64,000 nucleotides of DNA, from IMG/VR virus record IMGVR_UViG_3300037419_001469, positions 1-64,000 of that record. The stretch is one strand, 5' to 3'. The notes beneath the pieces are model-generated. The model saw only the letters and a list, made by a program, of their open reading frames with translations, did no database searches and was not told where the DNA came from. Made by a program: the position numbers and the translations under genes. This document shows, piece after piece, positions 3,983 to 45,411 of this stretch. Position 1 is the first letter of the stretch; the number at the start of each line of letters is the position of its first letter. This DNA is from a virus (Duplodnaviria; Caudoviricetes).

Positions 3983-6091
3983 TCATATCAGGATCAGGTT
4001 GTCCGCACTGGTTTCGCTTATCCCCTCGTGCGTGATGAGGATCGTCTGCGTGAAATCGCAGGCGGCAAGGAAGCCGAGCATGGCGGCGGTGCGGTCGTCG
4101 TCGCAAGCCGACATCGGCTCGTCCAGGACCAGGAAGGAACAGTCCGGCACGAACGATTTAATTAACGCCACGCGCAGAGCCATGCCGAGCACATCCAGCG
4201 CCGAGCCGGACAAGCCCTCGATCGCATGGCCGTTGACGGTGAAGCCGTTGGCAGTACGGGCCACAACCGACTTCGTGCCGCGCACCTGGGAAAACATCGT
4301 TGAGACGGACGCCAGGATGATGTCCCACAACTTGGCGGCGACGATCGGGCGCGCGGCGCGGATCTTCTTGACCAGGGTGTTGTTGAACACCAGGGCTTCG
4401 CGCTGCTGCTTCTTCGTTGCCAGCTGGTCGACCAGCTCGGCGTGCCGGCGCTTGGCCTGTTCATGCCCGGCACGGATGGCCGACAGCCGGGAGTTCAAGT
4501 CCCGGATCGATTGCTCGACCGCGGCCAGATGGCCCTCACGCTCTCGCAAGGCTTCGCGCGCGTCCATGTGCGCCACGCTGGCGGCGACGGAATCGATGGC
4601 AGCCGGCATGTCCTGCTCCTGGCTGGCGACCTCGTCCCGGGCCACTTCCAGCGCCTGCTTTGCCTCCTCCAGCCGCGACACGGCAATCGTCTTGGCCAGG
4701 TGATTCGCACTTAGTGTGTCGCGCTCGTTACGCAACGCGACCAGGTCCGGCAGTTCCTGTGGAGGCTCACCTTTCCAGGTGATCCGCGGCGGCACGAAAG
4801 CGCGGTCGACGTCGACGTACTGGCCGAACCACTCGGCATAGTTGTTCCACGGCTGCGCGCTGTTCAGCACCGCCTGTAGTGAGCGCAAGTCGGACTCCCC
4901 GGCGCGGATCAGGTCGTCCTGCGCCACGATCAGGTTGGCGAACGTCTGGCATGCGGCGTCGATCTCGGCGTTGGCGGCAGCAACTTCCGGCACCTCGCTG
5001 AAATCCTTGCCGCAGTAGCCGCAAGCCGATGCGGTCACCTTCTTCGCCCGCGCCTCCCGGATCTGCGCGTTCAGCTCTGCGCGCAGATCCTGCGCCTTCT
5101 TTACGCGCGCCAGCGTGTCGTTCAGTTCACGCTTGATGGAATCGACATCGCCTTCCCAATAGCTCTCCGGGTACGCAGGAAGCGCCTGCAGCTCACGAAA
5201 CGCCTCGGCCCGATGCGAGGCAGCCACCGCGCCGTCGACGGTCTCAGAGACCGTTTTAAGCCGCTCCTCGTCGACCTCGATCTCGGCGTCGCGCGCAAGC
5301 GCCTCGACATTTCTCTCGGCGCGGACCATCGCGCCCTGCGCCCGCTTCAGCGACTCCTCGGCCAGCCTCCGGGTCTCGGCCTGCGCCCGCGCCCGCGCCG
5401 CCGCTTCCCCGGCTTGCTCGACGGCAGCCTTGGCCTCGGCCACCTGCACCTTCGCCGCCTCCAGCGTCAGCAAGTCCTGCGCAAGCTTGCCGTCGATTGC
5501 CGTCGTATCCGGCGCCGTCAGGTCCAGCGCCTCGATGCTGTCCTCGATCATGGCGATCTCGGTGTCGAGGGCCTTGGTCGGGCCGGTCGCCAGCTTCGTC
5601 TGCGCCGCATCGAGCAGGCGGTCGAACAGGTCCATGCCGGACAGGTTCTCGATGTATTGGGCCAGCGCCTTCGGGCCGCCTTCGAGCGCGCCGCGCAGCC
5701 CGCCCTGCCCGGCGAACATCATGTTGACCGCGATGTTGCGCTCGACGCCCAGGAGTTCTTCGGCAAATTTACTCACCTCGTTCTGGCCGGTGACGGTGCC
5801 GCCGCTGTGCCGGCACTCCGCGCCGGAGTCGCCACGCTTGAACTCGTAGAGCTCGCCGCGCAGCCGGATCACCAGGACTACTTCCAGCTCGCGCACGCCG
5901 CGGCCCCAGGTGACGAGTTCGGCCAGCGGCTGCGGCATCGCCTTCACGCCGAACAGCGCATAGACCACGGCCAGCAAGAGCGACGTCTTGCCGCCCTCGT
6001 TCGGGCCGCGCACCGCATTCAAACCTTCGGTGAACGCGACCGATCTCTCGACATGCTGCCTCCAGCATGTCATCTTCAGGCTCACGAGCAT
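3983..6091 (-). CDS. SbcC/Rad50 (SMC-family) ATPase, recombination exonuclease subunit
   Basis: Walker A GPNEGGKT, long coiled coil with central CxxC hook (CGYCG), signature LSGS, Walker B LVLDEP, H-loop LITH. Confidence 0.9.
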   Translation of the reverse strand: MLVSLKMTCWRQHVERSVAFTEGLNAVRGPNEGGKTSLLLAVVYALFGVKAMPQPLAELVTWGRGVRELEVVLVIRLRGELYEFKRGDSGAECRHSGGTVTGQNEVSKFAEELLGVERNIAVNMMFAGQGGLRGALEGGPKALAQYIENLSGMDLFDRLLDAAQTKLATGPTKALDTEIAMIEDSIEALDLTAPDTTAIDGKLAQDLLTLEAAKVQVAEAKAAVEQAGEAAARARAQAETRRLAEESLKRAQGAMVRAERNVEALARDAEIEVDEERLKTVSETVDGAVAASHRAEAFRELQALPAYPESYWEGDVDSIKRELNDTLARVKKAQDLRAELNAQIREARAKKVTASACGYCGKDFSEVPEVAAANAEIDAACQTFANLIVAQDDLIRAGESDLRSLQAVLNSAQPWNNYAEWFGQYVDVDRAFVPPRITWKGEPPQELPDLVALRNERDTLSANHLAKTIAVSRLEEAKQALEVARDEVASQEQDMPAAIDSVAASVAHMDAREALREREGHLAAVEQSIRDLNSRLSAIRAGHEQAKRRHAELVDQLATKKQQREALVFNNTLVKKIRAARPIVAAKLWDIILASVSTMFSQVRGTKSVVARTANGFTVNGHAIEGLSGSALDVLGMALRVALIKSFVPDCSFLVLDEPMSACDDDRTAAMLGFLAACDFTQTILITHEGISETSADNLILI

Positions 6092-41979: not shown

Positions 41980-42759
41980 TTAACTGTTGGAGAACATGAA
42001 TTCCTTGCGGCTGCCATCGGCATAGTGCTTGGCATCGTACTCGGCCAGCGTCATGCCCAACGCCTCTGCCGCCTTCTGCCGCCTCTGCCGGTCAGCCTCC
42101 AATTGTGACAAGTGGTGTTGGGCGATGATCTCGTCCGTCTCTCCGTAGGGCCTTGTCGGCCTCAGAAGATCCTGGCCGCGTTGGTGGCGGCGGCGCAGCT
42201 CGTGGAAATTCACCGCGGAGATCGTCGTGACTTCGATCTCGGTCGTGACCAGGGCATCGGCCTCGTCGCTCCACTCGCGCACGCGCAAGGTGTAGGGGCC
42301 GTAGCCCTCGGGCAGATCCTCGCCTTGGTGCGCCTCCAGGTATTGCGCCAGCTGCCGCAGCGTCATCAGCTGCCCATTGTTGAACGGCGTCTTGACCAGG
42401 ATCGTTTTCGCCTGCACCGATTTGGCCTCGGCACGGGTTACCCATACGGCATTGGTCGGGTTGAAGCCGACTTTCAGGTTCTTGCGCCCGAGATAGATGC
42501 GGCGAAAGCGCATCGGCTTGGATTCGTCATCGTCCCAGGCCGGGTACATGTCCTCGACGAAGGCATGGAAATCGAACCAGCGCCGCATCACGAACGCACC
42601 CTTGGCGCCCAGGGCGCTCCAGTGCTTCGATTTCGGGTCGGCGCAGCCGTCGATCATCTTTTTCCATTCCCGGTACAGCGGATGGTTCGAGGAGCCGCGC
42701 GGTGCCGATGGCGGCGGGTAATCGAGGTCGGCAAGGTCGGCCGGTTGGACGGTTTCCAT
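41980..42759 (-). CDS. degenerate HNH-endonuclease-like protein
   Basis: HPLY..W..M...C..P....W..LG.KG..V..RW..F..F..DM pattern; expected LDRIDN..GY.P.N segment reads LGRKNLKVGFNPTN. Confidence 0.55.
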   Translation of the reverse strand: METVQPADLADLDYPPPSAPRGSSNHPLYREWKKMIDGCADPKSKHWSALGAKGAFVMRRWFDFHAFVEDMYPAWDDDESKPMRFRRIYLGRKNLKVGFNPTNAVWVTRAEAKSVQAKTILVKTPFNNGQLMTLRQLAQYLEAHQGEDLPEGYGPYTLRVREWSDEADALVTTEIEVTTISAVNFHELRRRHQRGQDLLRPTRPYGETDEIIAQHHLSQLEADRQRRQKAAEALGMTLAEYDAKHYADGSRKEFMFSNS

Positions 42760-42816
42760 GAAATCTCCATTTACAGTAAAGGACTAGGCGGATAAGGCTT
42801 GGCATTCCGGCTTGGC

Positions 42817-42822
42817 ATTATA
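42817..42822 (-). promoter_or_regulatory. perfect -10 TATAAT of a probable early promoter
   Basis: TATAAT ~58 nt upstream of 42759; TTGCGG 19 nt further upstream. Confidence 0.45.
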
Positions 42823-42844
42823 CGGCCGAAAATGGCTTGTCCCG

Positions 42845-43168
42845 CAAGTATGAGCAAATGTTGAGAAAATATTTTCGAAGGATTTTTGAATTGATCAAAC
42901 TTGGATCACAAAAATATGCCGGCTAAAAAAATTCTCAACATTTGTTTATACTTGAATGTCATTTATAAGAAAAAAATTTAATCCTTATGAATCCTTGACT
43001 TATAAATGTTGTTATATTTGAAATCGGTCGACCTTGCGCTTGTGAATCTGGCAATTTCGATGGCAGTGTGACAAGACAATAACCATGCTTGCGGTAGGGC
43101 CGATTTCGTTGTCAGAGTGCTATGCCAAGTACCGAGTGCAGAATGGTCGTGCCATTTGCTCATACTTG
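42845..43168. repeat. nested inverted repeats around an AT-rich core (origin-like)
   Basis: 16-bp IR 42845-42860/43153-43168; 13-bp IR 42855-42867/42932-42944. Confidence 0.7.
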
Positions 43169-43199
43169 GGTAGTTTTTCCATAGCACGAGCTTGGCGGG

Positions 43200-43900
43200 A
43201 ATAAGTGTCGGGAATAACTGGTGAAATGGGCTGTCTGCGCAGGGCGCTCGGGAGAACGCCCTGGGGAGACACCTTTCGGTGTCGGTGGGACTGGCGCGCG
43301 TCTCCCGACGCTCGCCACGGTAGGCTCCAGGACGCTTGCCATCCCGGCAATCGCCCCTCGTCCTTGTGCTCCCGTGCTGGCGGCAGAGCCGTGTGCCGCT
43401 CGGGGAGCCGCATCGTCGAATGTCGCTGAGGTGACAGTCGTTCAGAGCTTCGAGGCCGCCAAGAACGCTTGATGGAGCAGGGGCTGACAACGCTCGAACC
43501 CACACGTTGCCAGTGCCGGCCGCCCGCGCGTATCGCTACGCCTGAGGCAGTGGCCGGGTCCGCTTGCGCGGCTCTACTCCAGGGGTCACCGGAATCTCAC
43601 GACCGGCGCTTGCGCGCCGCATCCTTCGATGCCGGAATCGGCCCGGGCGATGCTGCTGCCCGGGCCTATCCTGATAATCAAATTGTCAGATCATGGGTTC
43701 ATCCGCGCGCCAGGGGCGATCATCACCACCAGCTGGTGCGCGAAGCCGCAGGGCCGCGCCTGATCTGCGCATGGCCCTGCAGGAACCGCCCGTTCATGTC
43801 ACCGCCGCGCCGCGCGAGGCCGAATCGGTGATACCGGGTCGATTGGTTCATCCTGCCGAAGAATCGGCATTGGCAAGCGCGGGGCTTGCCGATGCGGACT
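43200..43900 (-). ncRNA. candidate large structured ncRNA
   Basis: at least 12 hairpins; five clean GNRA tetraloops on minus strand; no RBS-supported ORF. Confidence 0.5.
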
Positions 43901-43905
43901 CGCAT

Positions 43906-44088
43906 TTACTGTAAATGGCGCGGCCGGTGAGATTCGAGACACGCCTTGATGGCGGCGCAGTAGCGTCTGTCGCATTCCTTGACATCGCCATCGCTGCACA
44001 TGCCAGCGGCGCGCATGCGCCGCGCCTCTTCCAGTTCTTCGCCATACTGATCTGCCAGCGCGCCAAGGCGCTTTTGTTCGCTTGTCAT
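43906..44088 (-). CDS. small hypothetical protein ending RHLQ* inside palindromic element
   Basis: GGGAGG RBS before MTSEQK; stop supplied by element. Confidence 0.6.
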   Translation of the reverse strand: MTSEQKRLGALADQYGEELEEARRMRAAGMCSDGDVKECDRRYCAAIKACLESHRPRHLQ

Positions 44089-44101
44089 GTCAGCCTCCCA
44101 T

Positions 44102-44242
44102 TTACTGTAAATGGCGGCGCTGGCCGCGCTGTTTGGCGGCGCGCATCGCGTCGCGCACGTTGATAGCCAGCGCGCCGAGGGCGATGCCGCAAGCGGCGGC
44201 GGCAAGCGCGAGATTGCCCGCCGCATGAATGATCGTTTCCAT
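44102..44242 (-). CDS. 46-aa hydrophobic peptide ending RHLQ* inside palindromic element
   Basis: AGGAGG RBS before METIIH; manual translation. Confidence 0.55.
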   Translation of the reverse strand: METIIHAAGNLALAAAACGIALGALAINVRDAMRAAKQRGQRRHLQ

Positions 44243-44484
44243 GATTTGCTGCCTCCTATGCGATGGCAGGCGGCGCATTTACTGTAAATGGCGCGCTGCC
44301 TGCCGATTGCGGCGCGATAGCGCGAAAGTTCGCGGGCAAGCATGCACAAGCGCGGAAAGAATCCGCCCTATTGCGCCGCCTGCCGCGCCAAATCGCCCCA
44401 TAGCGCCGCCAAATATGCCAGCGCGGCAGAATGCCCGCGCCAGCGCCGAAAATGCCGTATAGCGCCGCTATGGCGCTGCCAGCA

Positions 44485-44522
44485 TAAGAAAAGCGGCAGG
44501 GGTGATTGCTCACGCCTGCCGC
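44485..44522 (-). terminator. intrinsic terminator
   Basis: GCGGCAGG..GTGA GCAA TCAC..CCTGCCGC stem then TTTTCTT on minus strand. Confidence 0.65.
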
Positions 44523-44562
44523 CTTACTTATGCCGCCTGCCTTGCGGCAGGCGCTGAAGCGA

Positions 44563-45411
44563 TTACTTGCCGCGCTTGCCTTGCGGCGCGCTGCCTGCCG
44601 CTTCCAACTCTGCGACGCGCGCCGCCGCCGCATCGCGCGCCGCTTCCGCCGCCGCGAGATCGGCGCGCACAGCGGCCAGTTCTTCGCGCAACGTCAGCAC
44701 AAGCGCCGCGTTCGCTTCGGCGGTTTCCAGCGCCCTTTTTTGCGCCGCCGCTTCATTGCGCGCCGCTTCTATGCGCCGCGATTGCTCATTGGCCGCGCCT
44801 TCCGCCGCCGCCTTTGCCGCCGCGATGCCGCCGCCGCTGAGGAGGGCGTCGCCTGCCGCCGCCCTTGCCGCTTCGAGCACTTCCGGCGCATCGAAACCGG
44901 AGGAACAGACGGTCTGCACGATGGCGGCAACGTCGCGCTGCACCTGCTCTGCCATGCGCGTTTTTTCTTCCGCCTCCGCCGCTTCCGCCGCCTTTTTATC
45001 CTGCGCCGCGATGCGAGAACGGGCGACGGCAATCGCGTTATACGCGGCGGTTTTGTCGGCATTCGTTGCCAGCGAGCCTTCCCTTGTCCCAAGGAAAGCG
45101 CCATGCCAGTCTGTCGGGGCGATGCCGCCATCGCCGCGCATCAAGGCTTGCATCATGGCAAGGCGCGACACGGAACGCGGCACCTCGAACAGTTCGCACA
45201 GCGTGATAGCGTCGCGCAGCGCGCCGTTTTCATCGCGGCAATTTTGTTCGACTGCCGCAGAGATGGTTTTCTTTGCGGCATCGACGGTTTTTTTCGCGCC
45301 GTCAAGAATCGGTGCCGTGTCGCACAGTGCCTGCACAGCAGAGACGATTTGCTGATGCGTGACGGCAAGTGCTTTGTTGCTTTCCAGCGAGACGATATTT
45401 GCGGTTTTCAT
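44563..45411 (-). CDS. Ala-rich coiled-coil protein, first gene of the leftward arm
   Basis: 282 aa ORF, AGGAG RBS, terminator downstream, atypical GCG/GCA/AAA codons. Confidence 0.7.
   Translation of the reverse strand: MKTANIVSLESNKALAVTHQQIVSAVQALCDTAPILDGAKKTVDAAKKTISAAVEQNCRDENGALRDAITLCELFEVPRSVSRLAMMQALMRGDGGIAPTDWHGAFLGTREGSLATNADKTAAYNAIAVARSRIAAQDKKAAEAAEAEEKTRMAEQVQRDVAAIVQTVCSSGFDAPEVLEAARAAAGDALLSGGGIAAAKAAAEGAANEQSRRIEAARNEAAAQKRALETAEANAALVLTLREELAAVRADLAAAEAARDAAAARVAELEAAGSAPQGKRGK

Follow-up and report, generated by a model that had tools for sequence, protein, structure and literature searches.

The subject of this study is a candidate structured RNA element in the early arm of a phage known from an 84,785-bp IMG/VR virus record (IMGVR_UViG_3300037419_001469; 98% complete), of which bases 1-64000 were analysed and are referred to as the window. 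The minus strand carries genes leftwards from ~46.4 kb, and this early arm holds a gene-free gap of 1146 nt between a mini-gene of 60 aa and P0001, a gene of 259 aa that resembles HNH endonucleases. The GC-rich core of the gap, read from 43905 to 43230 on the minus strand, is interpreted here as part of the first leftward early transcription unit, in which it would be an untranslated segment that folds as RNA; we give this reading about an even chance. The stretch is non-coding, and the element belongs to no described RNA family. Its excess of inverted repeats is real, the energy advantage of its sense strand is modest, and its sense-specific loop signature is strong.

The loop signature was obtained by enumerating perfect stems of at least 4 bp that close 4-nt loops in 43200-43900. 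GNRA loops cap 6 of the 21 tetraloop hairpins on the minus strand and none of the 24 on the plus strand, against a genome-wide minus-strand background of 56/1340 (~4%). Dinucleotide-preserving shuffles of the region (2000) gave a mean of 0.44 GNRA hairpins and a maximum of 3, and the six that are observed place the stretch at the top of all 700-nt windows on both strands of the whole 84.8-kb genome, the runner-up having 4. The first-pass annotation, a reading of the letters by a model, had described strand-consistent GNRA hairpins and further stems here and had taken them for a large folded RNA; hairpin enumeration and the maximum expected accuracy (MEA) structure recover all of these hairpins in place, and the minus-strand loops lie far above the shuffles. 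A bulged GCAA hairpin of that description (43503-43515) is also present, but it competes with a better 10-bp stem, and a supposed T-loop, GGUUCGAG, is found in a 10-nt hairpin loop that has no T-stem and in which ARAGORN finds nothing. The word GAUUCCGG is present twice in the stretch. None of the six GNRA hairpins is followed by a U-tract, which rules out a cluster of intrinsic terminators, and a search of the minus strand for such terminators across 42600-44700 returned no terminator-like site. The sense strand is also richer in unpaired A, which is uninformative because the whole phage sense strand has more A than T.

Folding energies were expressed as z-scores against shuffled sequences. 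The whole 701 nt gave z -5.96 on the minus strand and -2.33 on the plus strand with 20 shuffles, and -4.9 and -3.3, respectively, with 70 shuffles, so that the stretch folds better than its shuffles, moderately, on both strands. When G-U pairs were forbidden (70 shuffles), z was -3.3 on either strand; since the strand difference vanishes, the sense advantage comes from wobble pairs. Separate foldings of the parts, each against 200 shuffles, gave -4.05 (minus) and -4.26 (plus) for the 5' domain (43636-43905), -1.9 and +0.5 for the central domain (43408-43634), and -4.44 and -2.09 for the 3' part (43150-43409). The minimum free energy of the central domain is -105.7 kcal/mol on the minus strand versus -91.7 kcal/mol on the plus strand, a gap of 14 kcal/mol. 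Six coding controls of 701 nt ranged from -2.3 to +1.7, and 200-nt windows in the flanking genes lay near 0. Folding with DNA parameters is strand-asymmetric as well (-4.1 minus, -1.5 plus).

The coding potential of the stretch is low by several measures. The GC contents of the three codon positions differ by at most 0.14 across 43200-43700, compared with 0.3-0.5 in the flanking genes, and the open reading frames (ORFs) of the stretch translate to implausible products rich in Arg, Cys and Trp. Pfam and PHROGs searches with all ORFs of at least 60 aa in the stretch found no family. The two longest ORFs, P0003 and P0005, have no homologues and are not themselves in the protein collections, as judged by a full HMMER search of 1.84 billion representatives for P0003 and a word-index search of 5.8 billion proteins for P0005. 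In an independent gene call, no gene falls within the 1146-nt gap. One ORF of 60 aa (43723-43905), whose ATG lies inside a palindrome at the border of the element, shows a weak third-position GC signal (spread 0.18-0.26 in 43700-43900) and has no ribosome-binding site (RBS). The earlier statement that no RBS-supported ORF is found here therefore holds, with no third-position GC periodicity in 43200-43700 and no gene called, and a conserved protein-coding ORF, the outcome that the first-pass annotation had set against its RNA, finds neither coding support nor homologues.

Rfam 15 at the gathering score gave no match in the 64-kb window, with GOLLD, ROOL, OLE, raiA, HEARO, the introns, RNase P, tmRNA and 6S among the families searched. 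At E<=10, the interval 42700-44300 returned noise only, the best being SorY on the plus strand with 24.9 bits against a gathering score of 111. ARAGORN found no tRNA or tmRNA genes in the window, and the earlier remark that hallmarks of group I/II introns, RNase P and tmRNA are missing agrees with both results. As DNA, the element has no blastn match in phage records, nor in the related 86.8-kb phage G001, and 21-mer scans of IMG/VR and GTDB genomes found no match to it. Searches were extended to the neighbouring genes (P0001, P0004 and TerL in IMG/VR; also JGI metagenomes, GTDB genomes and the protein collection). P0001 has only six homologues, at 45-53% identity, among 5.8 billion proteins, and the sole match of the 60-aa mini-gene protein is itself. 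The phage recurs in public data: a 65,062-nt contig of Logan run SRR35145553, a second sample, encodes identical 60-aa and 259-aa proteins with the same 1146-nt gap between them in an independent gene call.

Apart from the SRR35145553 contig, the searches recovered no more than three relatives, all distant (~50% protein identity), in which the slot can be compared: two 86-kb phage contigs, G001 (loci L002, L012 and L016) and L013, and a 3.3-kb Logan contig, L009. P0001, which starts ~450 nt downstream of the candidate element, served as the synteny anchor; its homologues in the three are 44-53% identical. The layout is common to all of them, in which an early gene is followed by a gap of 0.8-1.1 kb, an AT-rich stretch and the HNH-like gene, and the gaps have no codon periodicity and no called genes. 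Their folding z on the sense and antisense strands is -12.5 and -6.9 for the L002 gap of G001, -6.6 and -1.9 for L013, and -3.5 and -4.1 for L009. Rfam returned no match in the three gaps at E<=1, and none of them aligns to the window in blastn among the syntenic gaps.

Two of these gaps resemble each other. L002 4440-5245 (minus) and L013 2815-3740 (plus) hold a common structured non-coding element of ~800 nt, in which the loops CAAAACGA and CCAACCAA are conserved on stems that differ between the two. In its 3' 260 nt, 45 of 45 predicted pairs are kept, 11 of them via double changes; none of 500 column shuffles matched these values, and slid controls collapsed. Its 5' 160 nt contribute 33 more pairs, 5 with double changes and none broken, which brings the double changes to 16 in all. 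Coming from two sequences, with the structure derived from the same pair, the compensatory changes are suggestive, and the element is a candidate RNA motif in its own right. A scan with the pattern of conserved blocks recovered the L002 and L013 contigs only. The L002 gap also contains CCTATCAGTGAT(A/G) twice on the minus strand (~5055-5075 and ~4935-4955). Both copies resemble the tet operator core, either by chance or because a TetR-like protein uses them as an operator.

The MEA structure of the minus strand, with its pair probabilities, divides the element into three domains (Table 1). Pair probabilities reach 0.9-1.0 in the 5' domain, which also carries the repeated word GGAUGAACC(A/C)AU (repeat D10). 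The central domain, with pair probabilities of 0.8-1.0, is closed by three nested long-range helices, GCAUCG/CGAUGC, GGUGAC/GUCACC and UGGAGUAG/CUGCUCCA, whose probabilities are above 0.9. Beyond the 3' domain, 43239-43192 is largely unpaired and includes two tandem 13-mers, (G/C)UUAUUCCCG(A/C)CA, at 43218-43193 (repeat D9). Judged by its composition, the C-rich zone at this end could load Rho and so terminate the first early transcript within the AT-rich island. The hairpin at the border of the island contains UAUGG...CCAAG (43182-43163), which we take to be one base short of the 11-nt GAAA-tetraloop receptor; a canonical receptor is not claimed for this near match. The island is bracketed by a 16-nt perfect inverted repeat, CAAGTATGAGCAAATG (42845-42860 / 43153-43168), has a third, imperfect copy of it at 42939-42954, and holds a 30-nt imperfect inverted repeat. 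A phage protein, perhaps the HNH-like P0001, may bind the CAAGTATGAGCAAATG repeats. One AGTATGAG word is present at the matching AT-island border of G001 (L002 4433-4440).

The 5' boundary is marked by a palindrome, CCATTTACNGTAAATGG with the core TTTACNGTAAA, which has 13 copies in the window (25344-45483) compared with 0.01 expected. Most copies continue with ...AAATGGAGA (GGAGA), 5-7 nt and an ATG, and several supply the TAA stop of the preceding gene. On the transcribed strand, the four rightmost copies have A as their centre base and the remaining nine have U or C. The palindrome is thus an RBS-associated cassette; it could regulate translation as an operator, be a site of processing or be bound by a protein. 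The copy at the start of the element supplies the TAA stop of the 60-aa mini-gene and is an orphan, as the first-pass annotation had noticed: it is followed by GCGAGUCC, with no GGAG, no Shine-Dalgarno sequence and no plausible gene behind. In L009 a different palindrome, TCCTAACGTTAGGA, occupies the same cistron-start roles (40-53, 348-361, 380-393, 1242-1256 and 1706-1720) and lies on either side of the structured part, as it does with cistrons. Cistron starts thus seem to be marked by a palindrome particular to each phage.

Table 1. Positions of the predicted structural features of the element and of its neighbours in the window
Feature	Position	Strand	Details
GNRA hairpin GACACC-GAAA-GGUGUC	43283-43268	minus	
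GNRA hairpin GCGUC-GGGA-GACGC	43317-43292	minus	in 9/10 extended stem
GNRA hairpin GCGUA-GCGA-UACGC	43541-43528	minus	
GNRA hairpin CCGC-GCAA-GCGG	43571-43560	minus	
GNRA hairpin CGGCGC-GCAA-GCGCCG	43619-43604	minus	
Weak GNRA hairpin GGUC-GUGA-GAUU	43604-43593	minus	
Further stems	43263-43240 (10 bp), 43350-43336, 43632-43619, 43666-43640 (9 bp), 43782-43746, 43890-43872	minus	
Core of candidate structured RNA	43230-43905	minus	read 43905 to 43230; GC ~66%
Orphan copy of CATTTACNGTAAATG palindrome	43903-43917	minus	TTTACAGTAAA at 43905-43915; 5' boundary of element
5' domain	43636-43902	minus	strong local hairpins 43890-43872, 43869-43854, 43782-43746, 43744-43702, 43666-43640
Central closed multi-branch domain	43408-43634	minus	GCAA-, GCAA- and GCGA-capped hairpins and weak GUGA hairpin
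3' domain	43240-43408	minus	hairpins 43408-43368, 43357-43329; GGGA stem 43317-43292; GAAA hairpin 43283-43268; 10-bp clamp 43263-43240
C-rich, G-poor zone	43140-43300	minus	C/G 1.7-1.9; 3' end of structured part
Hairpin at AT-island border	43158-43191	minus	pair probability 1.0; overlaps one arm of 16-nt inverted repeat (I3)
AT-rich island	42781-43157		~375 bp; GC ~34%; context, may not belong to RNA
Upstream mini-gene, 60 aa	43906-44088	minus	called as gene in protein collection; last coding unit before element
P0001, HNH-endonuclease-like gene, 259 aa	41980-42759	minus	PHROG HNH families, E 1e-16
Palindrome and RBS of P0001	42770-42780	minus	

A sense-structured RNA is favoured because the GNRA loops are confined to the sense strand, wobble pairs give that strand an advantage, and folding is sense-biased in two of the three relatives; it is also favoured by the lack of iterons, DnaA boxes and terminators and by a structured kilobase that persists at a fixed slot in compact genomes. 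RNA polymerase would read into the element from the two mini-genes, as no terminator lies between them and the element. The RNA would start at the palindrome, here an orphan copy but elsewhere located ahead of every early cistron, and would fold into a 5' domain, a central multi-branch junction and a 3' domain, with its GNRA loops making tertiary contacts as in other ornate RNAs. With low confidence, we suggest that the RNA acts in cis at the adjacent AT-rich island; we lean slightly to this role because slot, size and structuredness persist although the sequence changes, and because the element always abuts an AT-rich island. In cis, it might serve as a structured end module that insulates or protects the first early transcript, or it might prime or activate an origin-like unwinding region by supplying a primer or an R-loop, like the transcripts of ColE1, T4 or T7. 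An ornate RNA that acts in trans, like GOLLD or ROOL, is given much the same probability as the cis role.

Several observations weigh against an RNA. The evidence for it comes from the DNA sequence itself and from synteny, and neither a sigma-70-like promoter nor a terminator was found to bound it on the minus strand, so that no discrete RNA is defined. Two pairs of GNRA hairpins are possible internal duplicates (repeats D5 and D13), which would leave fewer than six independent events; in one of these pairs, a C-G pair of one hairpin is replaced by A-U in the other, with the stem intact. The energy z-scores are modest and partly symmetric between strands: the 5' domain is about equally stable on both, the GNRA-rich central domain deviates only slightly from its shuffles, and single-stranded DNA of the minus strand may also account for the fold asymmetry. 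Phage records, IMG/VR, JGI metagenomes, GTDB genomes and Logan-derived proteins yielded no homologue of the element, which consequently has no covariation support. The gaps of the relatives show no GNRA enrichment, a covariance model (R1) of the L002/L013 element matches neither the window nor L009, and homology between the window element and those of the relatives is unproven. The large folded RNA of a new class that had been proposed therefore stands in part: a non-coding stretch with sense-specific structure and no known family is found, and the new-class RNA itself is not shown.

The main rival is a cis element at the DNA level, either origin hairpins for strand-specific single-strand initiation or a T5-like injection-stop or regulatory region, which we regard as possible though doubtful. 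The element abuts an AT-rich island with a 16-nt perfect inverted repeat and tandem 13-mers at the border, and the phage has a T5-like replication set (PolA, FEN, primase and SbcCD-like proteins). With Watson-Crick pairs only, both strands depart from random to the same extent, the 5' domain shows no strand preference, and DNA parameters also favour the minus strand; GNA/GNRA-type loops are moreover said by Hirao and co-workers to stabilise DNA mini-hairpins, which counts for this explanation. A DnaA-box cluster is nevertheless absent (TTWTNCACA; no exact site and one one-mismatch site in 42700-44000), as are iteron-like or T5-like direct-repeat arrays in 43200-43900. The 6:0 strand bias of the GNRA loops and the gain from G-U pairs on one strand are unexpected for duplex or cruciform DNA, and two of the three relatives fold much better on the sense strand. 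A T5-type injection-stop region (iss) in particular is disfavoured, its ordered DnaA-box cluster being missing from 42700-44000; the untranslated gap of 1146 nt is confirmed, and it might lie just behind the first-injected pre-early genes as such a region would. It appears improbable that the stretch has no dedicated function, being a spacer that evolves fast or the remnant of a decayed gene, with hairpins under generic selection only (e.g. for shielding a long untranslated transcript from Rho and exonucleases). Such a spacer or remnant would fit the lack of sequence conservation between phages at ~50% protein identity, the moderate overall z with its weak central domain, the C-rich tail behind the element, and the GNRA-capped hairpins of neighbouring intergenic spaces (44545, 44509 and 44396 upstream; 41971 and 41810 downstream), of which the upstream gap (44235-44600) has a folding z of -5.9. 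It does not readily explain why four genomes that are otherwise compact retain a gap of 0.8-1.1 kb in the same position, why the two loops shared by L002 and L013 are conserved while their stems covary, or why six GNRA hairpins occur in 700 nt, far above the shuffles and the rest of the genome.

Hidden small protein genes, such as the 60-aa ORF at 43723-43905, are unlikely. Third-position GC is modestly raised in its frame in 43700-43900, and translational coupling is conceivable, since its ATG stands immediately behind the TAA stop of the upstream gene; this ORF covers at most 180 nt, however, and has no Shine-Dalgarno sequence, an implausible Arg/Trp/Cys-rich product and no family match, while P0003 and P0005 are without homologues and the gap is left uncalled. 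A diverged known ribozyme or intron (group I/II, RNase P-like, or HEARO/omega RNA) is very unlikely. The many GNRA loops, the multi-branch junction and an HNH-like ORF 450 nt downstream would suit such an RNA; against them stand the absence of any Rfam family in the window or the relatives and of any tRNA or tmRNA by ARAGORN. Group I/II introns are disfavoured by the lack of flanking exons, as the upstream gene ends at its TAA, the downstream gene has its own RBS and start, and no ORF is split. The HEARO/omega RNA of IscB-type systems is disfavoured because Pfam recognises no domain in P0001, neither RuvC nor IscB.

The genome is that of a siphovirus and encodes a tape measure protein of 2655 aa and a large terminase of the gpA type. 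Its replication proteins, comprising DNA polymerase A, a 5'-3' exonuclease (FEN), a primase, an SNF2 helicase, SbcCD-like and ParB-like proteins, form a T5-like set. From the length of the tape measure protein (G000 61095-69062; L019 96-8060), the tail is expected to be very long. As the 2655-aa ORF encodes this protein, a virion RNA polymerase acting at N4-like hairpin promoters was ruled out. The similarity of P0001 to PHROG families annotated as HNH endonuclease is confined to residues 20-158, and a Pfam search with it found no domain, RuvC and IscB included. Farther upstream, the gap that follows a 282-aa coiled-coil gene (44243-44562, minus strand) contains a GCAA-capped hairpin of 8 bp; a second, long hairpin, with UUUUCUUAU behind it, resembles an intrinsic terminator.

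Large tertiary-folded RNAs without known function are rare, and several come from phages. If real, the element would add a new RNA to the large structured ones already described in phages, and it would offer a tractable case for the role of ornate RNAs during infection, in the first-expressed region and beside an origin-like island. The four related phages retain, in one slot, a structured non-coding kilobase whose sequence turns over, which points either to an RNA with a co-evolving partner in each phage or to a DNA control site like the T5 injection-stop region. A merely generic structured spacer would be ordinary. As a speculative extension, to which we attach little confidence, a small siphovirus lineage with T5-like replication genes may carry a fast-evolving class of ornate RNA of 0.7-1 kb at a fixed early slot, with the GNRA-rich form as one version, which would act as RNA at the AT-rich island in priming or licensing replication, for example, or in gating the passage from the first early genes to the remaining early programme.

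Among known systems, the element is closest in slot to that of G001 (L002) and L013, which likewise follows a coiled-coil gene and precedes an AT stretch and an HNH-like gene, and which has similar length and sense bias. The two differ in that no sequence is alignable, the covariance model gives no match, and the L002/L013 element has no GNRA enrichment and a GC content of 50-56% versus 66%. Origin-priming transcripts are represented by ColE1 RNA II, the R-loop origins of T4 and the promoter with AT-rich primary origin of T7. The likeness to these is one of anatomy alone, a structured untranslated segment of several hundred nt that runs into an AT-rich region in a phage with PolA and a 5'-3' exonuclease; unlike them, it comes with no promoter, RNase H site or antisense regulator identified in the phage. 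The ornate large RNAs GOLLD, ROOL, OLE and raiA are characterised (PMC12286853) as several hundred nt long, multi-branched, tetraloop-rich, often borne by phages or prophages, and of unknown biochemical role. The candidate shares with them length, multi-branching, many tetraloop-capped hairpins and carriage by a phage. It differs in having no Rfam match, no nearby tRNA genes and no set of homologues, and in a thermodynamic excess that is only moderate. T5-like phages have an untranslated region of 1.2-1.7 kb, rich in inverted repeats, after the first-injected genes, and in T5 an HNH gene is inserted nearby (bioRxiv 10.1101/866236). In contrast to the T5 iss, the candidate has no DnaA-box cluster and no direct-repeat arrays, its loops are biased to one strand, homologues of dmp, A1 and A2 were not recognised, and its terminase is of the gpA (cos) type rather than the long-terminal-repeat type. 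The resemblance to the T5 iss and repeat region 3 consists of a non-coding stretch of more than 1 kb behind the first early genes in a siphovirus whose replication genes are T5-like, a density of inverted repeats and palindromes, and a nearby HNH gene; if the lineage-wide class of ornate RNA exists, it would be the RNA counterpart of the untranslated iss region of T5.

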